Positions 2,039-47,352 of a stretch of 64,000 nucleotides of DNA are shown here, piece after piece. Source of the stretch: Escherichia coli (GTDB lineage: Bacteria; Pseudomonadota; Gammaproteobacteria; Enterobacterales; Enterobacteriaceae); the NCBI RefSeq assembly GCF_030013205.1, contig NZ_CP122648.1. One strand, given 5' to 3'. The stretch's first letter is position 1. Every line of letters starts with the position of its first letter. The notes under the pieces were generated by a model. That model saw only the letters and a program-made list of their open reading frames with translations, searched no databases and was not told where the DNA came from. A program made the position numbers and the translations under genes.

Positions 2039-3925
2039 ATGTCAACCGGATTACGTTTCACACTGGAAGTGGACGGCCTGCCGCCGGATGCTTTTGCGGT
2101 GGTTTCCTTTCATCTGAACCAGTCACTCTCTTCGCTCTTTTCCCTCGATCTCTCCCTGGTCAGCCAGCAGTTTCTCTCCCTTGAATTTGCGCAGGTGCTG
2201 GACAAAATGGCCTACCTGACGATATGGCAGGGCGATGAAGTACAGCGCCGGGTGAAAGGCGTGGTGACCTGGTTTGAACTCGGGGAGAACGACAAAAACC
2301 AGATGCTGTACAGCATGAAGGTGCACCCGCCGCTGTGGCGTGCCGGTCTGCGCCAGAACTTCCGTATCTTCCAGAACGAGGACATCAAAAGCATCCTCGG
2401 CACGATGTTGCAGGAAAACGGGGTGACCGAATGGAGTCCGCTGTTCAGCGAGCCGCATCCTTCCCGTGAGTTTTGTGTCCAGTACGGTGAGACTGATTAC
2501 GATTTCCTGTGCCGGATGGCGGCGGAGGAAGGCATCTTCTTTTATGAGGAGCATGCTTACAAAAGTACCGACCAGAGCCTGGTGCTGTGCGACACAGTCC
2601 GCCATCTGCCCGAATCTTTTGAAATCCCATGGAACCCGAACACCCGTACCGAGGTGAGCACCCTCTGCATCAGCCAGTTCCGCTACAGCGCACAAATCCG
2701 CCCTTCTTCCGTGGTGACCAAAGACTACACCTTTAAACGCCCCGGCTGGGCCGGACGTTTTGAACAGGAAGGCCAGCACCAGGACTACCAGCGCACGCAG
2801 TATGAAGTGTATGACTACCCCGGACGTTTCAAGGGTGCCCACGGGCAGAACTTTGCCCGCTGGCAGATGGACGGCTGGCGAAACAATGCAGAAACCGCGC
2901 GGGGAATGAGTCGTTCGCCGGAGATATGGCCGGGACGACGAATTGTGCTGACGGGGCATCCGCAGGCGAACCTGAACCGGGAATGGCAGGTGGTGGCAAG
3001 TGAACTGCACGGCGAACAGCCACAGGCGGTGCCAGGACGGCAGGGAGCGGGGACGGCGCTGGAGAACCATTTTGCGGTGATCCCGGCAGACAGAACATGG
3101 CGACCACAGCCGTTGCTGAAACCGCTGGTCGACGGCCCGCAGAGCGCTGTCGTGACAGGACCGGCAGGCGAGGAAATCTTCTGCGACGAACATGGTCGCG
3201 TGCGGGTGAAGTTCAACTGGGACCGTTATAACCCGGCAGACCAAGACAGTTCGTGCTGGATCCGTGTGGCACAGGCGTGGGCAGGCACCGGTTTTGGCCA
3301 CCTGGCGATACCACGTGTGGGTCAGGAAGTCATTGTGGACTTCCTCAACGGCGATCCGGACCAGCCGATCATTATGGGGCGCACCTACCACCAGGAAAAC
3401 CGCCCCCCCGGCAGCCTGCCGGGAACAAAGACGCAGATGACCATCCGCTCCAAAACGTACATGGGCAGCGGATTTAATGAGCTGAAGTTTGATGATGCGA
3501 CAGGGAGAGAACAGGTCTACATCCACGCGCAGAAGAACATGGATACCGAAGTGCTCAACGACCGTACCACCACCGTAAAACACGATCACCGCGAAACCGT
3601 AAAAAATGACCAGACGGTCACGATCCAGGAAGGTAACCGCCTTCTTACGGTGGAAAAAGGCCACAAGATCACCGGAGTACTGAAAGGGTCTTTATCTGAG
3701 GATGTCTTTCAGGACAGAGGCACGATTGCCGGTTCGGTGCATGTTGACGCTGTAAACAATGGTGGCGAAGGCGACGGTATACAGGCTTATACGGCGATTA
3801 AGGAAATTTTGCTGGCCGTGGAGGAAAGCAAAATTGCGCTGACGCCGGATGGCATTCAGCTACAGGTCGGGGAATCGACGGTACCGGATCACAGGTGTCA
3901 GTCACACCGACGGGATCCGGCTTAA
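2039..3925 (+). CDS. vgrG: VgrG-family type VI secretion spike protein, apparently C-terminally truncated
   Basis: 628-aa ORF with a GGAGG ribosome-binding site; N-terminus MSTGLRFTLEVDGLPPDAF typical of E. coli VgrG; gp27-like and gp5 OB-fold regions recognisable; ORF ends shortly after the start of the beta-helix repeat region and overlaps the Rhs ORF in another frame. Confidence 0.85.
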   Translation: MSTGLRFTLEVDGLPPDAFAVVSFHLNQSLSSLFSLDLSLVSQQFLSLEFAQVLDKMAYLTIWQGDEVQRRVKGVVTWFELGENDKNQMLYSMKVHPPLWRAGLRQNFRIFQNEDIKSILGTMLQENGVTEWSPLFSEPHPSREFCVQYGETDYDFLCRMAAEEGIFFYEEHAYKSTDQSLVLCDTVRHLPESFEIPWNPNTRTEVSTLCISQFRYSAQIRPSSVVTKDYTFKRPGWAGRFEQEGQHQDYQRTQYEVYDYPGRFKGAHGQNFARWQMDGWRNNAETARGMSRSPEIWPGRRIVLTGHPQANLNREWQVVASELHGEQPQAVPGRQGAGTALENHFAVIPADRTWRPQPLLKPLVDGPQSAVVTGPAGEEIFCDEHGRVRVKFNWDRYNPADQDSSCWIRVAQAWAGTGFGHLAIPRVGQEVIVDFLNGDPDQPIIMGRTYHQENRPPGSLPGTKTQMTIRSKTYMGSGFNELKFDDATGREQVYIHAQKNMDTEVLNDRTTTVKHDHRETVKNDQTVTIQEGNRLLTVEKGHKITGVLKGSLSEDVFQDRGTIAGSVHVDAVNNGGEGDGIQAYTAIKEILLAVEESKIALTPDGIQLQVGESTVPDHRCQSHRRDPA

Positions 3926-6900
3926 ACTGACGTACCACGCCAGCGGCTACCTGAAAGCCATTCACCGCACGGATAACGGCATACAGACGCTGGCGACCTA
4001 CGAACAGGATGCGCGGGGGCGGCTGACAGAAGCGGATGCGCGGCTGGACTACCACCTGTTTTATGAGTACGACGCTGCGGACCGGATCATCCGCTGGTCC
4101 GATAACGACCAGACGTGGAGCCGTTTCACCTACGATGAACAGGGCCGGTGCGTGAATGTCACCGGGGCGGAGGGCTATTACAACGCCACGCTGGACTATG
4201 GTGACGGCTGCACCACCGTGACGGACGGCAAGGGCATTCACCGTTATTACTATGATCCTGACGGCAATATTCTGCGGGAAGCAGCGCCGGACGGCAGCAC
4301 CACCATGTATGAATGGGATGAATTCCATCACCTGCTGGCCCGTCACTCCCCTGCCGGGCGGGTGGAGAAATTTGAATACAACGCCGCACACGGTCAGTTA
4401 AGCCGTTACACGGCGGCAGACGGCGCGGAGTGGCAGTACCGCTATGATGAGCGCGGCCTGCTCAGCAACATCACCGACCCTGCCGGGCAGACGTGGACAC
4501 AGCAGTGTGATGAACGCGGCCTGCCGGTAAGTCTGGTGTCGCCACAGGGCGAAGAGACCCGGCTGGCATACACCGCTCAGGGGCTGCTGTCGGGAATATT
4601 CCGCCAGGATGAACGGCGTCTGGGCATAGAGTACGACCACCACAACCGGCCGGAAACACTCACCGACGTGATGGGCCGTGAACACCACACCGAATACAGC
4701 GGTCACGACCTGCCGGTGAAGATGCGCGGCCCCGGCGGTCAGTCAGTGCGGTTACAGTGGCAGCAGCACCATAAACTGAGCGGCATTGAACGTGCTGGAA
4801 CCGGCGCGGAAGGATTCCGCTACGACCGCCACGGCAACCTGCTGGCCTGGACGGACGGCAACGGCGTTGTCTGGACAATGGAATACGGCCCGTTTGATTT
4901 GCCGGTGGCGCGAACGGACGGTGAAGGCCACCGCTGGCAGTACCGCTACGATAAAGACACGCTGCAACTGACAGAAGTCATTAACCCGCAGGGTGAGTCA
5001 TATCTTTATGTTCTGGATAACTGCGGCCGGGTGACGGAAGAGCATGACTGGGGCGGCGTGGTCTGGCGTTACCGCTATGACGCCGATGGCCTGTGTACCG
5101 CCAGGGTCAACGGCCTGGAGGAAACCATCCTCTACAGCCGGGACGCCGCAGGCCGCCTGGCAGAAGTCATCACGCCGGAAGGCAAAACGCAGTATGCGTA
5201 TGACAAATCCGGCAGGCTTACGGGTATCTTCAGCCCGGACGGCACATCACAGCGCACCGGCTATGACGAACGCGGGCGGGTGAATGTCACCACTCAGGGC
5301 CGACGGGCCATTGAATACCACCACCCCGATGAACACACCGTCATCCGCTGTATCCTGCCACCGGAAGATGAACGCGACAGACACCCCGGTGAATCCCTGC
5401 TGAAAACCACGTACCGCTACAACGCCGCCGGAGAACTGACGGAGGTTATCCTGCCGGGGGATGAGACGCTGACGTTCAGCCGTGATGAGGCAGGACGTGA
5501 AGTGCTCCGGCACAGTAACCGGGGTTTTGCCTGTGAACAGGGCTGGAATGCAGCCGGCCAGTCTGTCAGCCAGCGCGCCGGATTTTTCCCGGAAGAAGCC
5601 ACATGGGGCGGGCTGGTTCCGTCACTGGCGCGGGAATACCGTTATGACAGCGCGGGCAATGTGTCGGCTGTCACCAGCCGGGAAGATTACGGACGGGAAA
5701 CACGGCGGGAATACCGGCTGGACCGGAACGGCCAGGTCACGGCGGTGACAGCCTCAGGCACCGGGCTGGGCTATGGCGAAGGCGATGAGTCCTATGGCTA
5801 TGACAGCTGCGGCTACCTGAAGGCGCAGTCTGCGGGCTGGCACCGGATAAGTGAAGAGACTGACCAGTATGCCGGAGGCCACCGGCTGAAACAGGCCGGA
5901 AACACGCAGTATGACTATGACGCCGCAGGCCGGATGGTCAGCCGCACCAGACACCGTGACGGCTATCGCCCGGAAACAGAGCGGTTCCGGTGGGACAGCC
6001 GTGACCAGCTGACCGGGTATTGCAGCGCACAGGGTGAGCAGTGGGAATACCGCCACGACGCCAGCGGCAGACGAACAGAGAAACGCTGCGACCGGAAGAA
6101 AATCCGCTTCACGTATCTGTGGGACGGCGACAGTATTGCGGAAATCCGGGAATACCGCGATGATAAACTGTACAGCGTACGGCACCTGGTGTTTAACGGC
6201 TTTGAGCTGATAAGCCAGCAGTTCAGCCGGGTACGGCAGGCGCATCCGTCGGTGGCCCCGCAGTGGGTGACACGGACGAATCATGCGGTGAGCGACCTGA
6301 CGGGCCGTCCGCTGATGCTCTTTAACAGTGAAGGTAAAACCGTCTGGCGACCGGGACAGACCAGCCTGTGGGGGCTGGCACTCAGCCTGCCCGCAGACAC
6401 CGGCTACCCGGACCCGCGCGGGGAACTGGACCCGGAAGCCGACCCCGGCCTGCTGTATGCGGGACAGTGGCAGGATGCAGAATCCGGGCTGTGCTATAAC
6501 CGGTTCCGGTATTACGAGCCGGAAACCGGGATGTACCTGGTGAGTGATCCGCTGGGGTTGCTGGGGGGTGAGCAGACTTACCGGTATGTGCCAAATCCGT
6601 GTGGGTGGGTTGATCCGCTGGGATTGGCTGCAAGTTCTAAAATCAGCAGTTTGATGGACTATATTGGCGATGGTCGTCGTGTTAGTGGGCATACGGGTTT
6701 CCTGGATGGGGTTCGTTTATCACGTAGTCAAATAAACAATATTGCTAAAGAAATGGAGAAGCTAGGAATTAAAGTAATAAGGAAAGCAGATAAATATTTG
6801 CCACCAAATGCTAGGGCAGCTTTTGATTATGGCCTTCGCAATATTTATCTTAGGAAAAATGCCACCTTATATGAGGTGTATCATGAAGTGATTCATGCTA

Positions 6901-7079
6901 AGCAATTTGCGAAAATTGGACGAGAAGCATACGAAGCACTAGGACGTTTATCTAGGGAGGAACACGTTCTAAATGAAATATTAAAAAGTAAAAATTTATT
7001 CAATGAAGCGGAAATAGCTCATGCCATAAAATATGTTGAGGGATTGAGAGAAAAATTCATGATGGGACTAATAAATTGA
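3849..7079 (+). CDS. Rhs-family YD-repeat protein lacking the usual N-terminal region, with a C-terminal HExxH-containing tip
   Basis: 1076-aa ORF full of YD repeats (e.g. RYDxxGRL, YxYDxxG); core ends in the hallmark PNPCGWVDPLGL motif (~6590-6630), followed by a ~149-aa AT-rich tip containing HEVIH (6882-6896). The first ATG is inside the repeat region and no PAAR-like N-terminus is present, so this may be a fragment or pseudogene. Confidence 0.8.
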   Translation: MAFSYRSGNRRYRITGVSHTDGIRLKLTYHASGYLKAIHRTDNGIQTLATYEQDARGRLTEADARLDYHLFYEYDAADRIIRWSDNDQTWSRFTYDEQGRCVNVTGAEGYYNATLDYGDGCTTVTDGKGIHRYYYDPDGNILREAAPDGSTTMYEWDEFHHLLARHSPAGRVEKFEYNAAHGQLSRYTAADGAEWQYRYDERGLLSNITDPAGQTWTQQCDERGLPVSLVSPQGEETRLAYTAQGLLSGIFRQDERRLGIEYDHHNRPETLTDVMGREHHTEYSGHDLPVKMRGPGGQSVRLQWQQHHKLSGIERAGTGAEGFRYDRHGNLLAWTDGNGVVWTMEYGPFDLPVARTDGEGHRWQYRYDKDTLQLTEVINPQGESYLYVLDNCGRVTEEHDWGGVVWRYRYDADGLCTARVNGLEETILYSRDAAGRLAEVITPEGKTQYAYDKSGRLTGIFSPDGTSQRTGYDERGRVNVTTQGRRAIEYHHPDEHTVIRCILPPEDERDRHPGESLLKTTYRYNAAGELTEVILPGDETLTFSRDEAGREVLRHSNRGFACEQGWNAAGQSVSQRAGFFPEEATWGGLVPSLAREYRYDSAGNVSAVTSREDYGRETRREYRLDRNGQVTAVTASGTGLGYGEGDESYGYDSCGYLKAQSAGWHRISEETDQYAGGHRLKQAGNTQYDYDAAGRMVSRTRHRDGYRPETERFRWDSRDQLTGYCSAQGEQWEYRHDASGRRTEKRCDRKKIRFTYLWDGDSIAEIREYRDDKLYSVRHLVFNGFELISQQFSRVRQAHPSVAPQWVTRTNHAVSDLTGRPLMLFNSEGKTVWRPGQTSLWGLALSLPADTGYPDPRGELDPEADPGLLYAGQWQDAESGLCYNRFRYYEPETGMYLVSDPLGLLGGEQTYRYVPNPCGWVDPLGLAASSKISSLMDYIGDGRRVSGHTGFLDGVRLSRSQINNIAKEMEKLGIKVIRKADKYLPPNARAAFDYGLRNIYLRKNATLYEVYHEVIHAKQFAKIGREAYEALGRLSREEHVLNEILKSKNLFNEAEIAHAIKYVEGLREKFMMGLIN

Positions 7080-7789: not shown

Positions 7790-9010
7790 TTACCTGAAGC
7801 TGTTTTTTATTGCTTATACATGATCAAATACTCCTTACATAATTAAGGAGAACAAAATGGAACTTAAAAAATTGATGGAACATATTTCTATTATTCCCGA
7901 TTACAGACAAGCCTGGAAAGTGGAACATAAATTATCGGATATTCTATTGTTGACTATTTGTGCCGTTATTTCTGGTGCGGAAGATTGGGAAGATATAGAG
8001 GATTTTGGGGAAACACATCTCGATTTTTTGAAGCAATATGGTGATTTTGAAAATGGTATTCCTGTTCACGATACCATTGCCAGAGTTGTATCCTGTATCA
8101 GTCCTGCAAAATTTCACGAGTGCTTTATTAACTGGATGCGTGACTGCCATTCTTCAGATGATAAAGACGTCATTGCAATTGATGGAAAAACGCTCCGGCA
8201 CTCTTATGACAAGAGTCGCCGCAGGGGAGCGATTCATGTCATTAGTGCGTTCTCAACAATGCACAGTCTGGTCATCGGACAGATCAGGACGGATGAGAAA
8301 TCCAATGAGATTACAGCTATCCCAGAACTTCTTAACATGCTGGATATTAAAGGAAAAATCATCACAACTGATGCGATGGGTTGCCAGAAAGATATTGCAG
8401 AGAAGATACAAAAACAGGGAGGTGATTATTTATTCGCGGTAAAAGGAAACCAGGGGCGGCTAAATAAAGCCTTCGAGGAAAAATTTCCGCTGAAAGAATT
8501 AAATAATCCAGAGCATGACAGTTACGCAATGAGTGAAAAGAGTCACGGCAGAGAAGAAATCCGTCTTCACATTGTTTGCGATGTCCCTGATGAACTTATT
8601 GATTTCACGTTTGAATGGAAAGGTCTGAAGAAATTATGCGTGGCAGTCTCCTTTCGGTCAATAATAGCAGAACAAAAGAAAGAGCCAGAAATGACGGTCA
8701 GATATTATATTAGTTCTGCTGATTTAACCGCAGAGAAGTTCGCCACAGCAATCCGAAACCACTGGCACGTGGAGAATAAGCTGCACTGGCGTCTGGACGT
8801 GGTAATGAATGAAGACGACTGCAAAATAAGAAGAGGAAATGCAGCAGAATTATTTTCAGGGATACGGCACATCGCTATTAATATTTTGACGAATGATAAG
8901 GTATTCAAGGCAGGGTTAAGACGTAAGATGCGAAAAGCAGCCATGGACAGAAACTATCTGGCGTCAGTCCTTGCGGGGAGCGGGCTTTCGTAATCTTGCC
9001 CTGCCTGCTC
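7790..9010. mobile_element. H-repeat (ISAs1-family) element; boundaries approximate
   Basis: Contains the 378-aa H-repeat transposase gene; this type of element is known to accompany Rhs elements. Ends were not mapped. Confidence 0.6.
7857..8993 (+). CDS. ISAs1-family (H-repeat-associated) transposase
   Basis: 378-aa ORF with AAGGAG ribosome-binding site; sequence [32 protein letters not shown] matches the YhhI/YdcC H-rpt protein family as I recall it. Confidence 0.85.
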
Positions 9011-15533: not shown

Positions 15534-16295
15534 ATGCAATTGAGCAGCAGTGAACCTTGCGTGGTGATCCTGACCGAAAAAGAGGTAGAGGTAAGCGTCA
15601 ATAACCATGCCACGTTTACCCTTCCGAAAAATTACCTGGCCGCCTTCGCGTGCAACAATAACGTCATTGAACTCTCAACGTTAAATCACGTATTAATCAC
15701 CCACATCAACCGCAACATCATCAACGATTATCTGTTGTTTTTAAATAAGAACTTAACCTGTGTAAAGCCCTGGTCGCGGCTGGCAACCCCGGTTATCGCT
15801 TGTCATAGCCGTACACCGGAAGTGTTCCGGCTAGCCGCCAACCACAGCAAGCAGCAACCCAGCAAACCCTGCGAAGCGGAGTTGACGCGCGCATTGCTTT
15901 TTACCGTATTGTCTAACTTTCTGGAGCAATCGCGGTTTATTGCCCTACTGATGTATATCTTACGCAGCAGCGTCCGCGACAGCGTCTGCCGCATTATTCA
16001 AAGCGATATTCAGCATTACTGGAATCTGCGAATTGTCGCCAGTTCGCTATGTTTAAGCCCCAGCCTGCTCAAAAAGAAATTAAAAAACGAAAATACCAGC
16101 TATAGCCAGATTGTCACAGAGTGTCGTATGCGTTACGCCGTACAGATGTTATTGATGGATAACAAAAATATCACTCAGGTAGCGCAATTATGTGGCTATA
16201 GCAGCACGTCGTACTTTATCTCTGTTTTTAAGGCGTTTTACGGCCTGACACCGTTGAATTATCTCGCCAAACAGCGACAAAAAGTGATGTGGTGA
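15534..16295 (+). CDS. envY: AraC-family transcriptional regulator (porin thermoregulation)
   Basis: 253-aa ORF with C-terminal AraC-type HTH; sits between ybcH and the prophage boundary as in K-12. Confidence 0.75.
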   Translation: MQLSSSEPCVVILTEKEVEVSVNNHATFTLPKNYLAAFACNNNVIELSTLNHVLITHINRNIINDYLLFLNKNLTCVKPWSRLATPVIACHSRTPEVFRLAANHSKQQPSKPCEAELTRALLFTVLSNFLEQSRFIALLMYILRSSVRDSVCRIIQSDIQHYWNLRIVASSLCLSPSLLKKKLKNENTSYSQIVTECRMRYAVQMLLMDNKNITQVAQLCGYSSTSYFISVFKAFYGLTPLNYLAKQRQKVMW

Positions 16296-16340
16296 AGGAC
16301 AAAGCGGAAACGGATAAGACGGGGATAAATGAAGAAGAAA

Positions 16341-16385
16341 TGGCGCGCCCTGCAGGATTCGAACCTGCGGCCCACGACTTAGAAG
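16341..16385. repeat. Direct repeat of the tRNA-Arg 3' end (distal att site of the argU island)
   Basis: 45 nt identical to 26672-26716 (the 3' part of argU). Confidence 0.9.
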
Positions 16386-16808
16386 TTCCTAGAACGACAT
16401 TTTAAGTCAACAACTTACCACGCCATCTCTGCGCTCACACGTCCCACTACCTCAAAACATGTAAAGCCTTGCAAGCCATTGTGAGGCCTTATGTGTCTCA
16501 GTTTTGTCCCTCTTTTTTGTACTAAAAAACATAGTAATTGAGGATAAACCTCATGCTATTTTCGCTTATATGCCTCTAAAGGCATGGCACTTAAATAGAT
16601 AAAAGCACCACAAAAGCATAAAAAAACCACACAGTAAAACCACAATATGAAACAATAACAGATAATTAAACTAAAAACAGATAGCGCATTGTGATAATCA
16701 TTCAATACTAAACAAAATATAAACAGTGGAGCAATATGTAATTGACTCATTAAGTTAGATATAAAAAATACATATTCAATCATTAAAACGATTGAATGGA
16801 GAACTTTT

Positions 16809-17762
16809 ATGCGGGCGAAACTTCTGGGAATAGTCCTGACAACCCCTATTGCGATCAGCTCTTTTGCTTCTACCGAGACTTTATCGTTTACTCCTGACAA
16901 CATAAATGCGGACATTAGTCTTGGAACTCTGAGCGGAAAAACAAAAGAGCGTGTTTATCTAGCCGAAGAAGGAGGCCGAAAAGTCAGTCAACTCGACTGG
17001 AAATTCAATAACGCTGCAATTATTAAAGGTGCAATTAATTGGGATTTGATGCCCCAGATATCTATCGGGGCTGCTGGCTGGACAACTCTCGGCAGCCGAG
17101 GTGGCAATATGGTCGATCAGGACTGGATGGATTCCAGTAACCCCGGAACCTGGACGGATGAAAGTAGACACCCTGATACACAACTCAATTATGCCAACGA
17201 ATTTGATCTGAATATCAAAGGCTGGCTCCTCAACGAACCCAATTACCGCCTGGGACTCATGGCCGGATATCAGGAAAGCCGTTATAGCTTTACAGCCAGA
17301 GGTGGTTCCTATATCTACAGTTCTGAGGAGGGATTCAGAGATGATATCGGCTCCTTCCCGAATGGAGAAAGAGCAATCGGCTACAAACAACGTTTTAAAA
17401 TGCCCTACATTGGCTTGACTGGAAGTTATCGTTATGAAGATTTTGAGCTAGGTGGCACATTTAAATACAGCGGCTGGGTGGAAGCATCTGATAACGATGA
17501 GCACTATGACCCAGGAAAAAGAATCACTTATCGCAGTAAAGTCAAAGACCAAAATTACTATTTTGTTGCAGTCAATGCAGGTTATTACGTAACACCTAAC
17601 GCAAAAGTTTATGTTGAAGGCGCATGGAATCGGGTTACGAATAAAAAAGGTAATACTTCACTTTATGATCACAATGATAACACTTCAGACTACAGCAAAA
17701 ATGGTGCAGGCATAGAAAACTATAACTTCATCACTACTGCTGGTCTTAAGTACATCTTTTAA
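16809..17762 (+). CDS. ompT: Outer-membrane protease VII (omptin)
   Basis: 317-aa ORF with signal peptide and omptin beta-barrel sequence; location inside the argU prophage next to envY as in K-12 DLP12. Confidence 0.9.
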   Translation: MRAKLLGIVLTTPIAISSFASTETLSFTPDNINADISLGTLSGKTKERVYLAEEGGRKVSQLDWKFNNAAIIKGAINWDLMPQISIGAAGWTTLGSRGGNMVDQDWMDSSNPGTWTDESRHPDTQLNYANEFDLNIKGWLLNEPNYRLGLMAGYQESRYSFTARGGSYIYSSEEGFRDDIGSFPNGERAIGYKQRFKMPYIGLTGSYRYEDFELGGTFKYSGWVEASDNDEHYDPGKRITYRSKVKDQNYYFVAVNAGYYVTPNAKVYVEGAWNRVTNKKGNTSLYDHNDNTSDYSKNGAGIENYNFITTAGLKYIF

Positions 17763-17948: not shown

Positions 17949-19433
17949 ATGCGAAAAATAATTACTCATTTCAAAGTTGTTTTAACGTTACTTCTACCAG
18001 TAACCGTATCTGCCCAGCAGATACAGTGGCAATCCTGTATGGCCAGTCAATTCAACCACTGGTTTGGTGAGGAAAAACCGTCTCCTGACTTACTATGTGG
18101 TTATTTGTCTGTTCCATTAAAATATACAGACACAGGCGGAGATGCTTCTTATGAAAAAAAATCACAAGTCAAACTAGCGTTGACAAAATTGCCGGCAAAA
18201 AGCAAGCATAAAGGAAGTATCCTGATAATAAGTGGTGGTCCCGGGTTACCAGGCATAAATCCTTATATTAACTTTGACTGGCCAGTCACAAATCTTCGTG
18301 AGTCATGGGATATTATTGGATTTGATCCTCGAGGCGTCGGACAGTCCACTCCGACAATAAACTGCCGGCAATCAGATACAGAGACTCAGGAAAACATAAC
18401 CGAAAAGCAACAAGTATTAAATAAAATTAATGCCTGTATCCATAATACCGGAGCCGAAGTCATTCGCCATATCGGCTCTAACGAGGCTGTGTACGATATT
18501 GATCGTATTAGGCAAGCCTTGGGGGATAAACAACTGACAGCCGTGGCGTATTCGTATGGAACTCAAATTGCAGCCTTATATGCAGAACGTTTTCCCTACA
18601 ACGTAAGATCTATCGTTCTTGATGGAGTCGTCGATATCGATGACCTGGAGGACAACTTCACATGGCAACTCAAACAGGCACAGAGTTATCAGGAAACGTT
18701 TGATCGCTTTGCATCCTGGTGTGCGCGTACAAAAAGTTGCCCGCTTTCTTCAGACAGAGATAAGGCAATAACTCAGTTCCATGAGCTATTATCAAAATTA
18801 CATCACAAACCTTTATTAGACAGTAAGGGAGAAAATATATCTTCAGATGAACTCATATCATTAACAACAGACCTTCTGCTATGGCGTTCATCATGGCCAA
18901 CCCTTGCAACTGCCATACGCCAGTTCTCTCAGGGGATTGTCAGTAATGAAATTGAAACTGCGCTCAGTGCTCCGATAGCCTCAGAAGAGTCAAGCGATGC
19001 TTCGGGGGTAATCCTCTGTGTAGATCAGGGGGATGAGCAATTAACACCAGAAGAGCGAAAATCCCGAAAAGACGCTCTTGCGAATGCCTTCCCGGCTATT
19101 AACTTTGACAATGGACGTTCCGATTCACCTGATTTTTGTGAATTATGGCCAATACATAGCGACCTGAACAAAACTCGCCTGAAAAATATTGTTCTGCCCT
19201 CTGGTTTACTGTTTGTAGCACACAAATACGACCCAACAACGCCCTGGATTAATGCCCGTAAGATGGCAGAGAAATTTTCCAGCCCGTTACTAACAATAAA
19301 TGGTGATGGGCATACATTAGCTCTCACCGGAGTTAATTTATGTGTAGATAAAGCAGTTGTACATCACCTGATCACTCCACAAAAAATAGAAAATATATAC
19401 TGCCCAGGAAATTCTGAAGCAGAAATACAATAA
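17949..19433 (+). CDS. Secreted alpha/beta-hydrolase, S33/TAP-like peptidase family (putative)
   Basis: ATG at 17949 gives MRKIITHFKVVLTLLLPVTVSAQQ (signal peptide); nucleophile elbow VAYSYGTQ; size (~494 aa) and layout resemble proline iminopeptidase / tripeptidyl aminopeptidase-type hydrolases. Confidence 0.6.
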   Translation: MRKIITHFKVVLTLLLPVTVSAQQIQWQSCMASQFNHWFGEEKPSPDLLCGYLSVPLKYTDTGGDASYEKKSQVKLALTKLPAKSKHKGSILIISGGPGLPGINPYINFDWPVTNLRESWDIIGFDPRGVGQSTPTINCRQSDTETQENITEKQQVLNKINACIHNTGAEVIRHIGSNEAVYDIDRIRQALGDKQLTAVAYSYGTQIAALYAERFPYNVRSIVLDGVVDIDDLEDNFTWQLKQAQSYQETFDRFASWCARTKSCPLSSDRDKAITQFHELLSKLHHKPLLDSKGENISSDELISLTTDLLLWRSSWPTLATAIRQFSQGIVSNEIETALSAPIASEESSDASGVILCVDQGDEQLTPEERKSRKDALANAFPAINFDNGRSDSPDFCELWPIHSDLNKTRLKNIVLPSGLLFVAHKYDPTTPWINARKMAEKFSSPLLTINGDGHTLALTGVNLCVDKAVVHHLITPQKIENIYCPGNSEAEIQ

Positions 19434-19616: not shown

Positions 19617-19922
19617 TCAATATACATTTTGCACCTTCGAGATAGTAATGAATGTTACTGTAACATGAGTTACAAACAGCTTCATACCCAGAGCTACTGA
19701 TGTATCAACACGATTCAACAATACCCGATATTTATTCCATGCCTCCAGCAACGATCTTTCTTCCTCCGTTGCGATTTCCAGATCTACAGCATCCTGCAGT
19801 GGCGCAATATACTCACTGAATTCCTGGATGTAGAACTGTGTGGTGACGGTCTTCCAGCCATTCGGCTCCTGCTGTATCGAAGCATACCAGGCTATTTCAA
19901 TATCGCTATGCTGCGGCAGCAT
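19617..19922 (-). CDS. Hypothetical phage protein sharing a ~37-aa segment with the gene remnant at 20700-20867
   Basis: 101-aa ORF; the central segment [34 protein letters not shown] is encoded by one copy of the ~120-bp direct repeat. Confidence 0.4.
19699..19818. repeat. Direct repeat copy A (~120 bp, ~88% identical to copy B)
   Basis: Hand alignment to 20748-20867. Confidence 0.8.
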
Positions 19923-20687: not shown

Positions 20688-20747
20688 CATAATCCCAATG
20701 ATTACTCCCTGACAGGGTTCGTAGGCCACTCAATATCAGGTGCAGTT

Positions 20748-20867
20748 GATGTATCAACACGGTTCAGCAACACCCGATACTTTTTCCAGGCTTCCAGCAA
20801 TGAGGTTTCTTCCTCCGTTGCGATTTCCAGATCCACAGCATCCTGAAGTGGCGCAATATGCTCACTG
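20748..20867. repeat. Direct repeat copy B (~120 bp)
   Basis: Hand alignment to 19699-19818. Confidence 0.8.
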
Positions 20868-21104
20868 GCTACCCTGGCGACGCGCCTTACGCGTTAACCA
20901 GCCTTCTGCTTCCAGCCGTGCGATAGCCGTTCTGACGGTACTCATCCCCGCGCCAATCTGGCGTGCAATGGTTTCAATTGATGGCCAGCACACACCTTCG
21001 TCATTACTGAAATCAGCCAGGCGGGCCATAATTGCCACGCTGGATAACTTCATGCCTGACGCAGCGCAACCATCCCATACATAGCCGGTTAATTTAGTGC
21101 TCAT
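20862..21104 (-). pseudogene. Phage HTH protein (replication-initiator-like N-terminus), truncated / frameshifted
   Basis: 80-aa ORF with HTH (SIETIARQIGAGMSTVRTAIARLE); the homologous continuation ([20 protein letters not shown]...) is in another frame immediately downstream. Confidence 0.5.
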
Positions 21105-21113
21105 GACCGACCT

Positions 21114-21452
21114 CTATTTCCCTGAATTTACGACGAAACTGTTCGAGCGGGCTGAAGCACTCATGCTCATAGCCTTCGCGGAGGTAGATAACCCGTTGTG
21201 TTTCCGGCTCCCAACGAATGACTCTGACGGGTACTCCGTAGTGATCTTTGAACCAGCGGTTAACTTGTCGCAAAGGACTGTCTCCTTCTGCCGGTTGAAA
21301 TCACCCACAGCCCACTCTGCAAAGCTGTGGGTTACAATTTCCCTGTCACCTGGTACATTCACTGCATAGCAATATTCCACCTTCGCTTTTCCACCCGGTA
21401 CAGGAAGCGCAATCAGTTGCGAGCGACGGTAGTGTGTTGTTAAACTGTTCAT
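21114..21452 (-). CDS. Hypothetical phage protein
   Basis: 112-aa ORF; ATGA overlap with the upstream CII-like gene suggests translational coupling. Confidence 0.4.
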
Positions 21453-22018
21453 GCGTTAGTTTCTCCACAACCAGAAGCAATCGACGCCACGACGCCCGGA
21501 GCTGCACACTCGCGGGCGTCATTACTTTCTGAAATGCAAAAAATTTTGTAGACAAGTGCTGCATGCTCCTGCAGCTTCGAAATTGAGAGATACAGCTCGT
21601 CGTTAATTGCTGTCTTCTCATGCGGTTCCACTACACCGTCTTCGATTGCTGAACGAATCTGTTTTGAATAACTGCCGATCTGTTCAATGACTTCCAGCAG
21701 ACGCTGGTTAATATCGGCGTTGTCCACATCCTCGACGTCAGGAAGAGACACAAAGACGCCATTTGCAGACTGCGCCACAGCATCAGCAATGAAGTGAGTG
21801 CCACCAGCACGCTGTAAAACCATTGCCCATCCCAGCGGGAAAATCTGATCGCCATCTGCACGAAGGCGGTTGAATAAAGCGTTTTCTGTTACATCGAGCC
21901 AGTCAGCCGCTTCAGCGTAACCACCCGGCAACGCCGCGATAGTTTTTCTGACAGCTTTCACGTACCACTCAGGCTGTTTTTCTATTTTCCAGTGATGCTT
22001 ACCCACGATTAGCCTCAT
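21449..22018 (-). CDS. Phage CII-like / YdaT-family regulatory protein (putative)
   Basis: 189-aa ORF directly downstream of the cro-like gene in the rightward early operon; assignment by position and general resemblance. Confidence 0.45.
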
Positions 22019-22340: not shown

Positions 22341-23015
22341 ATGAAAACAATCCATGACATCCGGCGGTCTAACGCCAGAAAACTGAGAGATGGTGTTGGC
22401 GGGAATTCTTCCTTTGCCACTATGATTGATCGCGAGCCAACCCAGACCAGCAGGTTTATGGGAGATGGTGCTACTAAAAATATCGGTGACAGCATGGCAC
22501 GACACATCGAAAAATGTTTCGACCTGCCTGTCGGATGGCTCGATCAAGAACACCAGACAACGAACATCACAAAAAAACCTGATGTTTCAATCACTAATAA
22601 ACAAATCACATTAGTCCCTGTCATATCATGGGTACAGGCCGGAGCATGGAAAGAAGTTGGATATTCTGAGGTTGATTTGAGCACAGCAGAAACGTATCCC
22701 TGCCCTGTACCCTGTGGGGAAATGACTTATATCCTGCGGGTGATAGGTGATTCAATGATTGATGAGTACCGCCCGGGAGACATGATTTTTGTCGATCCTG
22801 AAGTACCTGCCTGCCACGGTGACGACGTTATTGCATTGATGCACGATACAGGTGAAACCACCTTCAAAAGGTTGATAGAAGATGGGACACAGCGTTATCT
22901 CAAAGCGTTAAACCCAAACTGGCCTGAGCCTTACATTAAGATCAACGGTAATTGCTCTATAATTGGAACTGTGATTTTCTCAGGAAAACCAAGAAGATAC
23001 AAAATCAAAGCCTAA
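22341..23015 (+). CDS. CI-like phage repressor with LexA/S24 autopeptidase domain
   Basis: 224-aa ORF; N-terminal HTH region and C-terminal S24 domain (GDSM..., TFKRL). Confidence 0.8.
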   Translation: MKTIHDIRRSNARKLRDGVGGNSSFATMIDREPTQTSRFMGDGATKNIGDSMARHIEKCFDLPVGWLDQEHQTTNITKKPDVSITNKQITLVPVISWVQAGAWKEVGYSEVDLSTAETYPCPVPCGEMTYILRVIGDSMIDEYRPGDMIFVDPEVPACHGDDVIALMHDTGETTFKRLIEDGTQRYLKALNPNWPEPYIKINGNCSIIGTVIFSGKPRRYKIKA

Positions 23016-24214: not shown

Positions 24215-24577
24215 ATGGCTAGCGAACGCAGTACTGATGTGCAGGCATTTATCGGGGAGCTGGACGGCGGCGTATTTGAAACCAAAATCGGCGCAGTTCT
24301 CAGTGAAGTCGCTTCCGGTGTGATGAACACGAAAACCAAAGGTAAGGTCTCACTCAACCTGGAAATCGAACCATTTGATGAGAACCGTGTGAAAATCAAA
24401 CACAAACTCTCATATATTCGCCCGACTAACCGCGGGAAAATTTCCGAAGAAGACACCACCGAAACGCCGATGTATGTCAATCGCGGTGGTCGCCTGACTA
24501 TTCTGCAGGAAGACCAGGGACAATTACTGACTCTTGCCGGTGAACCTGACGGAAAACTCCGCGCAGCAGGTCGTTAA
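24215..24577 (+). CDS. YfdP-like phage protein
   Basis: 120-aa product from MASERSTDVQ with GAGGAG ribosome-binding site; matches the size and sequence I recall for K-12 CPS-53 YfdP. Confidence 0.7.
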   Translation: MASERSTDVQAFIGELDGGVFETKIGAVLSEVASGVMNTKTKGKVSLNLEIEPFDENRVKIKHKLSYIRPTNRGKISEEDTTETPMYVNRGGRLTILQEDQGQLLTLAGEPDGKLRAAGR

Positions 24578-24642: not shown

Positions 24643-25467
24643 ATGTCTCAGAACTTAGACGCAACCGCAATTAATCAAATCCATGCCCTTATTTCTGCTC
24701 AGGGTGTTAATGAAATTATCAGTAAGATTGGTGCCGATGCTGTGGCATTGCCTGAGAATTTCCGCATTCATGATCTGGAAAAATTTAATTTAAATCGCTT
24801 CCGTTTCCGTGGTGCACTTTCCACTGCCAGCATCGATGATTTTACCCGTTATTCTAAAGATCTTGCAGATGAAGGCACCCGCTGCTTTATCGATGCCGAT
24901 AATATGCGTGCCGTCAGTGTGCTTAACCTGGGTACTATTGATGAGCCAGGTCACGCAGATAACACTGCCACTCTCAAACTGAAAAAGACAGCACCGTTCT
25001 CTGCTCTGTTGTCTGTTAACGGCGAGCGTAACTCCCAGAAGTCACTGGCAGAATGGATCGAAGACTGGGCCGACTACCTTGTGGGCTTTGATGCTAATGG
25101 TGACGCCATTCAAGCAACAAAAGCGGCTGCGGCAGTCCGTAAAATCACGATTGAAGCAAACCAGACCGCTGATTTTGAAGATAATGACTTCAGCGGCAAA
25201 CGCTCCCTGATGGAGTCTGTCGAAGCGAAGACCAAAGACATTATGCCAGTGGCATTTGAATTTAAATGCGTTCCGTTTGAAGGTCTGAAAGAACGTCCGT
25301 TTAAATTACGCCTCAGCATTATCACTGGCGATCGTCCTGTACTGGTTCTGCGCATTATTCAGCTGGAAGCGGTGCAGGAAGAAATGGCTAACGAATTTCG
25401 TGATCTGCTTGTTGAGAAATTCAAAGACAGCAAAGTAGAAACCTTTATTGGTACTTTCACCGCCTGA
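24643..25467 (+). CDS. YfdQ-like phage protein (DUF2303 family)
   Basis: 274-aa ORF, same length as K-12 YfdQ, directly after the yfdP-like gene. Confidence 0.7.
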
Positions 25468-25594
25468 TTTCATTACTGCAAATGCCCCTGCGGGGGCATT
25501 TATGGAAACGTAATTAACTCAATAATCACCGGATGGTGAGGGCTTCCTTTTACCAGAATTCAGCGCGGTGCAGTGCATATACGTGGAGAACAAA

Positions 25595-26656
25595 ATGTCA
25601 TTTATTAAAACTTTTTCCGGGAAGCATTTTTATTATGACAAGATAAATAAAGACGACATCGATATTAACGATATCGCGGTTTCCCTTTCAAATATCTGTC
25701 GCTTTGCCGGTCATCTTTCGCACTTCTACAGCGTCGCCCAACATGCGGTTCTTTGCAGCCAGCTGGTGCCGCAGGAATTTGCTTTTGAAGCGTTAATGCA
25801 TGATGCAACAGAAGCGTATTGCCAGGACATTCCCGCACCACTGAAACGCCTTCTTCCTGACTATAAACGGATGGAAGAAAAAATAGACGCCGTAATCCGT
25901 GAGAAATACGGGTTATCAACTCAGACAAAGGCAAAGCATCTTGCCATGATAAAGGCCATTCTCCGTGCTGCAGAACGCGACTGGAAGTGGCTGGAAAAAG
26001 CGCCTGTCATCAAGATACCAGCGGTCAGAAACAAGCGAGTCAGATGGCTGGAAAAGGAGGAAGCAAAACGCCTTATTGATGAGTGCCCCGAACCACTGAA
26101 ATCTGTCGTCAAGTTTGCGCTGGCAACTGGTCTGAGAAAGTCGAACATCATAAATCTGGAATGGCAACAAATCGACATGCAGCGACGAGTTGCCTGGGTG
26201 AATCCAGAAGAGAGCAAATCAAACCGCGCCATTGGTGTGGCGCTGAACGATACCGCCTGTAAAGTGTTGCGTGATCAAATAGGCAAGCATCACAAATGGG
26301 TGTTTGTACATACCAAGGCGGCTAAGCGAGCAGATGGAACATCAACGCCTGCGGTCAGGAAGATGCGCATCGACAGCAAGACATCATGGCTATCAGCTTG
26401 TCGTCGTGCAGGAATTGAAGATTTCCGTTTCCATGACCTCAGACACACCTGGGCAAGCTGGCTGATCCAGTCAGGCGTCCCATTATCTGTGCTTCAGGAA
26501 ATGGGCGGATGGGAGTCCATAGAAATGGTTCGTAGGTATGCTCACCTTGCGCCTAATCATTTGACAGAGCATGCAAGGAAAATAGACGACATTTTTGGTG
26601 ATAATGTCCCAAATATGTCCCACTGTGGAATTATGGAGGATATAAAGAAGGCGTAA
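25595..26656 (+). CDS. Chimeric ORF: YfdR-like HD-domain N-terminus fused in frame to a tyrosine-integrase catalytic domain (likely inactive integrase remnant)
   Basis: N-terminal ~105 aa [14 protein letters not shown]...[10 protein letters not shown] (HD motif); C-terminal ~240 aa with integrase signature [11 protein letters not shown]...VRRYAHL, ending 16 nt from the tRNA 3' end; the integrase arm/core-binding N-terminus is absent. Confidence 0.7.
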
Positions 26657-26671
26657 CTGATTGAATTGTAA

Positions 26672-26748
26672 TGGCGCGCCCTGCAGGATTCGAACCTGCG
26701 GCCCACGACTTAGAAGGTCGTTGCTCTATCCAACTGAGCTAAGGGCGC
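26672..26748 (-). tRNA. argU: tRNA-Arg (anticodon UCU)
   Basis: 77-nt sequence whose reverse complement is GCGCCCTTAGCTCAGTTGGATAGAGCAACGACCTTCTAAGTCGTGGGCCGCAGGTTCGAATCCTGCAGGGCGCGCCA; cloverleaf and UCU anticodon readable by eye. Confidence 0.93.
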
Positions 26749-45045: not shown

Positions 45046-46095
45046 ATGAAAATCAGTCGGGAAACACTCCACCAGCTAATCGAGAATAAACTCTGCCAGG
45101 CTGGGTTAAAACGTGAGCACGCTGCAACCGTGGCTGAAGTATTGGTTTACGCCGATGCCAGAGGGATCCACTCTCATGGCGCGGTGCGCGTGGAATACTA
45201 CGCGGAACGCATTTCAAAAGGCGGCACCAACCGCGAACCGGAGTTTCGTCTTGAGGAAACCGGGCCGTGTTCGGCAATTTTACATGCCGACAATGCTGCC
45301 GGACAGGTCGCGGCGAAAATGGGTATGGAACATGCCATCAAAACCGCCCAGCAAAAAGGCGTTGCGGTGGTCGGTATCAGCCGGATGGGTCACAGCGGCG
45401 CAATCTCTTATTTTGTACAGCAGGCAGCTCGCGCCGGGTTAATTGGCATTTCGATGTGCCAGTCCGATCCAATGGTGGTGCCGTTTGGCGGCGCGGAAAT
45501 TTACTACGGTACTAACCCACTGGCCTTTGCCGCGCCGGGAGAAGGCGACGAGATCCTTACCTTTGATATGGCGACTACCGTACAGGCATGGGGAAAAGTG
45601 CTCGACGCCCGCTCGCGTAATATGTCTATCCCGGATACCTGGGCGGTCGATAAAAACGGAGCACCAACAACCGATCCATTTGCAGTTAACGCCCTGCTCC
45701 CTGCCGCCGGACCGAAAGGGTATGGCCTGATGATGATGATTGACGTCCTCTCAGGCGTCTTACTCGGTTTACCGTTCGGGCGACAGGTTAGTTCGATGTA
45801 TGACGATTTACACGCCGGGCGTAATTTGGGGCAATTACATATCGTTATTAACCCGAACTTTTTCTCCTCCAGCGAACTATTCCGTCAACATCTTAGCCAG
45901 ACCATGCGCGAATTAAATGCCATAACCCCCGCGCCCGGTTTTAACCAGGTTTATTATCCCGGACAGGATCAGGATATTAAACAACGCAAAGCCGCCGTCG
46001 AAGGCATCGAAATTGTTGATGATATTTACCAGTATTTAATTTCTGACGCGCTTTATAACACGTCATACGAAACGAAAAATCCCTTTGCGCAATAA
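45046..46095 (+). CDS. allD: Ureidoglycolate dehydrogenase
   Basis: 349-aa Ldh_2-family ORF at the head of allDCE. Confidence 0.88.
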   Translation: MKISRETLHQLIENKLCQAGLKREHAATVAEVLVYADARGIHSHGAVRVEYYAERISKGGTNREPEFRLEETGPCSAILHADNAAGQVAAKMGMEHAIKTAQQKGVAVVGISRMGHSGAISYFVQQAARAGLIGISMCQSDPMVVPFGGAEIYYGTNPLAFAAPGEGDEILTFDMATTVQAWGKVLDARSRNMSIPDTWAVDKNGAPTTDPFAVNALLPAAGPKGYGLMMMIDVLSGVLLGLPFGRQVSSMYDDLHAGRNLGQLHIVINPNFFSSSELFRQHLSQTMRELNAITPAPGFNQVYYPGQDQDIKQRKAAVEGIEIVDDIYQYLISDALYNTSYETKNPFAQ

Positions 46096-46116
46096 TTATT
46101 GAGACAGGACTTTCTT

Positions 46117-47352
46117 ATGATTACACATTTCCGTCAAGCCATAGAAGAAACGCTGCCCTGGCTTTCCTCTTTTGGCGCTGACCCAACGGGTGGGATGACC
46201 CGTTTACTTTATTCGCCGGAATGGCTGGAAACTCAGCAGCAATTTAAAAAAAGAATGGCAGCAAGCGGGCTGGAAACACGTTTCGATGAAGTGGGGAATT
46301 TATATGGTCGCCTGAGTGGCACCGAATATCCACAAGAAGTGGTTCTGAGCGGTTCGCATATCGATACCGTGGTTAACGGCGGTAACCTCGACGGGCAATT
46401 CGGCGCGCTGGCGGCGTGGCTGGCAATTGACTGGCTGAAAACGCAATACGGCGCGCCGTTACGTACGGTCGAAGTGGTGGCGATGGCAGAAGAAGAAGGC
46501 AGCCGCTTCCCGTATGTCTTCTGGGGCAGTAAAAATATCTTTGGGCTGGCGAATCCTGACGACGTGCGGAATATCTGTGATGCCAAAGGAAATAGTTTTG
46601 TCGATGCGATGAAGGCTTGCGGATTTACTCTGCCGAACGCCCCACTAACTCCGCGTCAGGATATTAAAGCCTTTGTTGAACTGCATATTGAACAGGGCTG
46701 TGTGCTGGAAAGCAATGGGCAGTCAATTGGCGTGGTGAATGCAATTGTCGGGCAGCGTCGTTATACGGTGACGCTGAACGGCGAATCAAACCATGCAGGC
46801 ACCACGCCGATGGGTTATCGTCGTGATACGGTTTACGCTTTCAGTCGCATTTGCCATCAGTCTGTCGAAAAAGCGAAAAAGATGGGCGATCCGCTGGTTC
46901 TGACCTTTGGCAAAGTAGAGCCGCGCCCGAATACGGTGAATGTGGTGCCGGGTAAAACCACGTTCACCATTGATTGTCGCCATACCGATGCTGCCGTGCT
47001 GCGCGATTTCACCCAACAGTTAGAAAACGACATGCGGGCGATTTGCGATGAAATGGACATTGGTATTGATATCGATTTATGGATGGACGAAGAACCCGTG
47101 CCGATGAACAAGGAACTGGTCGCCACCCTGACAGAATTGTGTGAACGCGAAAAACTGAATTACCGGGTGATGCACAGTGGTGCCGGGCACGACGCACAAA
47201 TTTTCGCGCCGCGCGTGCCGACCTGCATGATTTTTATCCCCAGCATCAACGGGATCAGCCATAACCCGGCAGAACGCACCAATATTACCGACCTTGCCGA
47301 AGGGGTCAAAACGTTGGCACTCATGCTTTATCAACTTGCCTGGCAGAAATAA
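46117..47352 (+). CDS. allC: Allantoate amidohydrolase
   Basis: 411-aa product from MITHFRQAIEETL; M20 peptidase-family motifs. Confidence 0.88.
   Translation: MITHFRQAIEETLPWLSSFGADPTGGMTRLLYSPEWLETQQQFKKRMAASGLETRFDEVGNLYGRLSGTEYPQEVVLSGSHIDTVVNGGNLDGQFGALAAWLAIDWLKTQYGAPLRTVEVVAMAEEEGSRFPYVFWGSKNIFGLANPDDVRNICDAKGNSFVDAMKACGFTLPNAPLTPRQDIKAFVELHIEQGCVLESNGQSIGVVNAIVGQRRYTVTLNGESNHAGTTPMGYRRDTVYAFSRICHQSVEKAKKMGDPLVLTFGKVEPRPNTVNVVPGKTTFTIDCRHTDAAVLRDFTQQLENDMRAICDEMDIGIDIDLWMDEEPVPMNKELVATLTELCEREKLNYRVMHSGAGHDAQIFAPRVPTCMIFIPSINGISHNPAERTNITDLAEGVKTLALMLYQLAWQK

Follow-up and report, generated by a model that had tools for sequence, protein, structure and literature searches.

A yfdR-intD chimeric reading frame in an argU prophage remnant of Escherichia coli arose by a 1,523-bp deletion

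The window analysed, a stretch of 64,000 nucleotides of Escherichia coli DNA, carries on its plus strand, at 25568..26656, an open reading frame that starts with GTG, encodes 362 amino acids and joins parts of two phage genes, yfdR and intD. An ATG at 25595, which has a GGAG motif 7 nt upstream, gives a product of 353 amino acids. Given that this ATG corresponds to the annotated start of full-length YfdR in relatives, it is likely to be the true start of the chimera, and the probable product is therefore the one of 353 residues encoded, with its stop codon, by 25595..26656. The reading frame and argU are convergent, and the ORF and tRNA coordinates bear out the initial annotation of this DNA, according to which the stop codon lies 16 nt from the tRNA gene's 3' end.

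The same annotation had described a YfdR-like HD N-terminus followed in a single ORF by a tyrosine-recombinase domain, and both were recovered in the domain search. Pfam returned PF00589 (Phage_integrase) nearly in full, with positions 1-171 of the 172 in the model aligned to residues 159-330 (E 2.3e-46), and the YfbR-like HD family PF12917 in part, with positions 36-99 of 182 aligned to residues 50-113 (E 1.6e-4). The PHROG profiles divide the chimera in the same manner, with phrog_318 (deoxyribonucleoside 5'-monophosphate phosphatase) covering residues 1-128 (E 1.3e-71) and phrog_1 (integrase) residues 96-344 (E 5.5e-68). This two-domain content is far beyond chance. The gene callers conflict at this locus: the exact 353-aa sequence is found in GenBank on 28 contigs of one lineage, where the submitters call it a 'hypothetical protein', whereas PGAP, in RefSeq, annotates only the 3' part (25910..26656) as 'site-specific integrase, incomplete, missing N-terminus', that is, as a pseudogene, and leaves the yfdR half out.

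The chimera lies at one end of a prophage remnant. ARAGORN finds a single tRNA gene in the whole window, argU (26672..26748, minus strand), a tRNA-Arg with anticodon TCT that is the integration target. Repeat comparison places the attL core, a 47-nt direct repeat, over the 3' part of argU (26670..26716), and the attR core, a second and pauD-like copy of the argU 3' repeat, next to envY (16339..16385). These exact repeats bound an element of 10.4 kb with the int sequence at attL and reading towards attL, which is the arrangement of a lambdoid prophage at argU. From attR to attL the element holds ompT, a hydrolase gene, two tail-fibre-assembly fragments flanking a ybcY-type methyltransferase gene, a fragment of O, a DUF4222 gene, ymfL, ymfT, ymfK, a hypothetical gene, yfdP, yfdQ and the chimera. 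The ompT gene (16809..17762, plus strand), annotated as such, encodes the omptin outer-membrane protease (NCBIfam NF008222, E 2e-212); an omptin gene stands at the right end of phage PhiR29_1, and ompT is therefore a phage moron, here too at the right end. The alpha/beta hydrolase gene (17949..19433, plus strand), known from its annotation, is a phage-borne moron also present in PhiR29_1. Among the regulatory genes, ymfL (21449..22006, minus strand) encodes by profile and annotation a cII-like regulator, and ymfK (22341..23015, plus strand) an intact cI-like repressor of the LexA family, whose equivalent is annotated cI in PhiR29_1. Further towards attL lie yfdP (24215..24577, plus strand; from annotation) and yfdQ (24643..25467, plus strand; DUF2303, from the ORF list and annotation), which is intact, shares an operon with the chimera and immediately precedes it.

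PhiR29_1 is recorded as a complete lambda-like genome of 46.3 kb, with a left arm as in the remnant and a right end in the order Stf-Tfa-YbcY-Tfa-hydrolase-omptin. When compared with it by BLAST, the remnant resolves into collinear blocks of 99.2-99.7% identity that are interrupted at three places: a gap of 1,523 bp, a gap of ~32.9 kb, and a 1.66-kb module near attR in place of which the window has 185 bp. This module encodes in PhiR29_1 an Xre/cupin regulator and a YjaB-like N-acetyltransferase, and the 185 bp occupy 16511-16695 of the window. In the PhiR29_1 record (L006:1-97 and 46052-46273), the 47-nt argU repeat is present at both ends, and the last 222 bases match the envY-side flank of the window at 16289-16510; these matches suggest that the limits of the record are those of a prophage with its att sites rather than of a packaged genome.

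The ~32.9-kb deletion begins inside the replication gene O and ends inside the tail-fibre assembly gene tfa, and its junction, located with BLAST against PhiR29_1, has a 7-nt overlap (20867..20873). It eliminated the genes for replication, lysis, head and tail and joined its flanks out of frame, leaving an O fragment of 78 amino acids followed by SQ and a stop; in the annotation, the O and tfa pieces are two adjoining partial pseudogenes. The cargo that the initial annotation regarded as preserved does survive insofar as the immunity region, ompT and the neighbouring morons are concerned, but this deletion took most of the phage. A direct repeat of 121 nt with 89% identity (19698-19818 and 20747-20867) corresponds to the two tail-fibre-assembly fragments on either side of the ybcY-type methyltransferase gene, and its second copy ends at the junction.

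The 1,523-bp gap is the one that created the chimera. A query spanning the locus was compared by megablast with 5,426 complete E. coli genomes, of which 17 carry the exact junction with 100% identity across it; all 17 come from pigs or wild boar, in several countries, and O139:H1 and ETEC strains are included. A longer query of the locus is covered to at least 80% in 228 complete genomes, and more than 200 complete E. coli genomes have the undeleted arrangement. Among the matches listed, the genomes other than these 17 hold the locus in two or more pieces that span ~1.5 kb more. In the undeleted order, yfdQ-yfdR-yfdS-yfdT-xis-intD-argU, which is also that of isolated-phage records such as PhiR29_1, yfdR and intD belong to the same operon and are 1.3 kb apart. 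The closest undeleted parent is strain YZ3E2001 (locus L003), with 99.9% identity, in which yfdQ is followed by yfdR (178 aa), a yfdS-like gene, yfdT, a short 'HTH' pseudogene, intD (387 aa) and argU.

Comparison of the flanks with L003 defines the event to the nucleotide. Window and L003 show no difference up to 25915 and again from 25914, with offsets that differ by 1,523, so that the junction (25914..25915) consists of a 2-nt TA microhomology present in both parental flanks. The yfdR fragment (25595..25915, plus strand) is 100% identical to L003 yfdR up to 25915 and comprises codons 1-107 of 178; the intD fragment (25914..26656, plus strand) matches the parent over codons 142-387 and the stop, and holds the complete catalytic domain with ~42 residues upstream of it. 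What was removed is the part of yfdR encoding YfdR 108-178, yfdS, yfdT, the whole of xis, and IntD codons 1-141. The initial annotation had guessed a breakpoint at KYGL/STQTK, which alignment to YfdR and IntD shows to be exact, and the deletion fusion that it proposed is demonstrated by an undeleted parent in more than 200 genomes with which the window is collinear except for one gap of 1,523 bp. It is clear that the chimera is a deletion product, with its endpoints, lost content and restricted distribution established. Both halves are free of substitutions when compared with the parent genes, and this identity indicates that the deletion is recent. The junction can be used as a simple lineage marker for this pig ETEC/O139:H1 group.

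The continuity of the reading frame has a simple origin. In the parent, the start of intD is at 2 (mod 3) from that of yfdR, and the length of the deletion is also 2 (mod 3), which brings the two genes into the same frame; had the join fallen in either of the alternative frames, the ORF would stop at 117 or 160 codons. An in-frame join is thus a one-in-three chance that needs no further explanation, and that one of the two deletions of this prophage is in frame is unremarkable. The 1,523-bp and ~32.9-kb deletions co-occur in the same 17 genomes, and no genome with only one of them was found among the complete genomes. Two relatives of the same prophage family have decayed in other ways: FORC_042 has an internal stop in intD and an IS3-associated deletion, and E300010, where intD is intact, carries different internal deletions. 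FORC_042 was considered as an intermediate with one deletion and rejected, its decay path being independent. Such varied inactivations across lineages are the usual pattern of prophage decay.

The deletion also took the excisionase gene. In L003 and its relatives, a frame that begins MEPYSL... and extends into the start of intD has 123 open codons, and its product matches phrog_2907 (excisionase) from end to end (residues 1-116 aligned to positions 2-117 of a 117-position profile, E 1e-45); the phage records PhiR29_1, PhiR29_2, PhiR49_1 and Kati carry this sequence with 100% identity. It is located at L003:12390-12761, and also at L001, L005 and L006 1037-1431; these positions are inside the deletion, and hence the gene is not in the window. 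At this place between yfdT and intD, PGAP reports only a 66-nt 'helix-turn-helix, incomplete' pseudogene (missing C-terminus), and the PhiR29_1 record has nothing annotated. The view that follows from PGAP, namely that the ancestors had an xis reduced to a 66-nt pseudogene and were excision-defective before this deletion, was rejected on account of the 123 open codons and the end-to-end excisionase match. As judged from its reading frame, the xis of this argU prophage family looks intact and systematically under-annotated, which could mislead calls on which argU prophages stay mobile.

With regard to the HD half, the first 107 residues of the chimera (...EKYGL) are those of YfdR 1-107 with 100% identity. 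The HD motif that the initial annotation placed in the N-terminus was located, with H50, H69 and D70 retained. The HD 5'-deoxynucleotidases (YfdR/YfbR-like, PF12917) have a full H...HD...D tetrad in a fold of ~180 aa, and the chimera falls short of this: the conserved D119 of YfdR (KYAD), which aligns to the KKAD of the HD protein 2gz4, is beyond residue 107 and was deleted, together with the rest of the C-terminal 71 residues (YfdR 108-178), which make up 40% of the fold. The domain is thus incomplete, as had been stated. With one of its four metal ligands lost and 60% of the fold left, the HD half would, on the basis of what is established for HD phosphohydrolases, not be an active nucleotidase.

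The integrase half, the last 246 residues (STQTK...), is 100% identical to IntD 142-387. It has the catalytic domain of a tyrosine recombinase (PF00589) with the full set of R-K-H-R-H/W-Y residues, at R181, K208, H280, R283, W306 and Y315 in fusion numbering, and these align to the motifs of HP1 integrase and XerA. The roles of the Int domains have been described (PMC1807965), and it is in the domains preceding the catalytic one that the chimera departs from a lambda-type heterobivalent integrase. The N-terminal arm-type DNA-binding domain is entirely gone with codons 1-141, as the initial annotation had it. The core-binding (SAM-like) domain, which it had also listed as missing, is incomplete rather than absent: the Pfam catalytic domain corresponds to IntD 184-355, and upstream of it ~42 residues (IntD 142-183) survive in the chimera. 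This is reflected in the XerA model, where the match to the chimera begins at position 55 of 263, and in Pfam Phage_int_SAM_5, for which the chimera gives only a sub-threshold partial match. The third component, a cognate excisionase for attL x attR, is lacking at the locus, with xis wholly within the deletion.

Excision requires Xis in addition to Int. The chimera has no means of binding the arm sites and has lost most of its core binding, and no Xis is encoded; for these reasons, on the basis of what is established for lambda-type heterobivalent integrases, its product would be unable to carry out excision. The idea that the fusion immobilises the island is thus strongly supported by the sequence, and the case is stronger than the one initially made, given that xis was deleted as well. 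A related phage that supplied Int and Xis in trans could possibly still move the remnant, since both att repeats are intact. A stable chimeric protein with residual DNA-cleaving or DNA-binding activity is also possible, considering that the catalytic domain is complete with all its active-site residues and that the native yfdR ribosome-binding site is in place.

These observations can be brought together in one sequence of events. A PhiR29_1-like lambdoid phage of the DLP12 family would have integrated at the 3' end of argU, its early-left operon running yfdP-yfdQ-yfdR-yfdS-yfdT-xis-intD towards attL. One illegitimate deletion, of 1,523 bp, joined yfdR codon 107 to intD codon 142 in the ancestor of a single pig-associated E. 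coli lineage, and a second, out-of-frame deletion of ~32.9 kb took the replication, lysis and virion genes, leaving a remnant that retains the immunity region together with the ompT, hydrolase and ybcY morons. The chimera is very probably a by-product of this decay by two deletions, in a remnant that would stay where it is as long as no Int and Xis act on it in trans. Most likely, it is a non-functional chimeric pseudogene in an element that cannot excise by itself.

Selection may have favoured the loss of the excision module, which would lock useful prophage genes such as ompT and the immunity region in the chromosome and stop costly induction and excision. This is compatible with the decay mechanism and differs from it only in claiming adaptation. 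The deletion takes xis and the DNA-targeting part of int and leaves cI, yfdPQ and ompT intact, IntD function has been lost in other lineages too (e.g., by the internal stop of FORC_042), and the 17 carriers are all members of a single pig-pathogen group that has been successful. However, the event apparently happened once and was inherited clonally, so that hitch-hiking explains its frequency equally well, and the intact module has been kept in more than 200 genomes. The destruction of yfdR, yfdS and yfdT along with it indicates that the deletion was not targeted. On balance, selection is rather improbable.

A much less likely explanation is that the chimera is a functional new protein, either a YfdR fragment tethered to a DNA-cleaving recombinase domain or a dominant-negative Int that would interfere with related phages as they integrate at argU. 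Its ORF is intact, in frame and provided with native start signals, its catalytic domain is complete, and full-length YfdR has been found to bind domains I-II of DnaA (PMC4776307); the DnaA-binding region within YfdR was, however, not mapped in that study. Both domains are cut within their folds, the HD domain being without D119 and 40% of its length and the integrase without its arm-binding and most of its core-binding domain, and one join in three would be expected to fall in frame. The identity to the parents indicates that there has been no adaptation since the fusion, and the junction is limited to one clonal lineage. Its architecture is also without homologues elsewhere: a natural HD-plus-integrase family, with diverged homologues in several lineages, is what the initial annotation had set against its own reading, and none was found in a search of 5.8 billion protein clusters, of which the best 120 of 6,799 matches were examined and proved to be plain (387-aa) integrases with PF00589 only, none covering more than 75% of the query. 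It is similarly hard to credit that the chimera would be expressed on YmfK inactivation with an activity of its own, nicking or occupying argU-type core sites or bringing a DnaA-binding fragment to a new partner domain. If the core-site version were true, it would imply interference with the integration or excision of related IntD phages, and a functional chimera would count as a recent case of gene birth through the decay of a prophage.

In K-12, yfdR is mostly associated with CPS-53 at argW, and intD with DLP12 at argU. From these locations a recombination between two prophages, a CPS-53-like yfdR with a DLP12 intD, is conceivable, but this and an assembly or sequencing artefact can both be rejected as having next to no probability, given the identical junction in 17 independently sequenced complete genomes and 28 contigs, the proximity of yfdR and intD as neighbours in one operon of the parental prophage and of the phage records, and the collinearity and identity of both flanks with the parental prophage.

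The chimera is an ordinary and already annotated pseudogene in a decaying prophage of the DLP12/PhiR29 family and does not represent a new kind of protein. Nothing points to a new function or to selection for it, and beyond careful annotation it matters little. The locus as a whole shows in clean resolution how two deletions poor in microhomology turn a live lambda-like phage into a fixed chromosomal island of 10 kb: one of them took the lethal and virion genes and the other xis and the DNA-targeting half of int, and ompT and the immunity region stayed.

Elsewhere in the window, a VgrG/TssI-like ORF (2039..3925) overlaps, in another frame, an Rhs-type ORF (3849..7079) that has a high GC content (about 0.6) and a zincin-like toxin domain. 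In strain K_EC180, PGAP marks the vgrG and rhs ORFs both as partial pseudogenes, and the window has ~335 extra bases (3549-3881) at the vgrG/rhs junction when compared with that strain; the vgrG/rhs locus thus varies among otherwise near-identical strains. This junction was considered as a further frame control and dropped, as window and annotated reference lack collinearity at this point. A transposase gene of the ISAs1 family (ISEc1, 7857-8993) separates the vgrG/rhs remnant from nfrB. At ~52250, in the allW region, there are small indels relative to K_EC180 in or near an allantoin transporter gene, the K_EC180 copy of which PGAP marks as frameshifted.

Among known elements, the remnant can be compared with the cryptic prophage DLP12 of E. 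coli K-12, whose layout is argU-intD ... ompT-pauD. The two share the integration site (the argU 3' end, flanked by fimZ and envY), an integrase of the IntD family (387 aa) and ompT at the right end beside a partial-tRNA att repeat, and both are defective lambdoid remnants. They differ in that intD of the window lacks codons 1-141 and is fused to yfdR, whereas that of DLP12 is full-length, in the early-left module, which in the window is of the yfdPQRST type as in PhiR29_1, and in size (10.4 kb versus about 21 kb). In K-12, DLP12 with its full-length intD excises at <1e-5, i.e., in under 1 per 100,000 cells, and Qin, whose integrase is inactive, gives no detectable excision (PMC3105296).

The phages PhiR29_1, PhiR49_1, Kati and Turner are close in sequence, with 99.2-99.7% nucleotide identity over every retained segment and the same order int-xis-yfdT-yfdS-yfdR-yfdQ-yfdP-cI...tfa-ybcY-tfa-hydrolase-omptin. 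They are complete, at 45-49 kb, whereas the element in the window has lost 1,523 bp (xis/int) and ~32.9 kb (O to tfa). That the PhiR phages are live rests on their GenBank records, which state 'complete genome' and give a propagation host; a search for literature on the PhiR phages found none. With N-terminally truncated lambda-type integrases, such as the catalytic fragments of lambda Int, which in isolation are known to retain only topoisomerase-like activity, and decayed ones such as the intQ of Qin, the chimera shares a catalytic domain kept without the arm-binding domain, and it differs from them in the translational fusion of its truncated Int to YfdR 1-107 as a foreign N-terminus. When compared with the HD 5'-deoxynucleotidases YfdR of CPS-53 and YfbR, its N-terminal 107 residues are those of a YfdR orthologue with the H...HD motif, but the C-terminal 71 residues, including the Asp that completes the H...HD...D tetrad, are absent.
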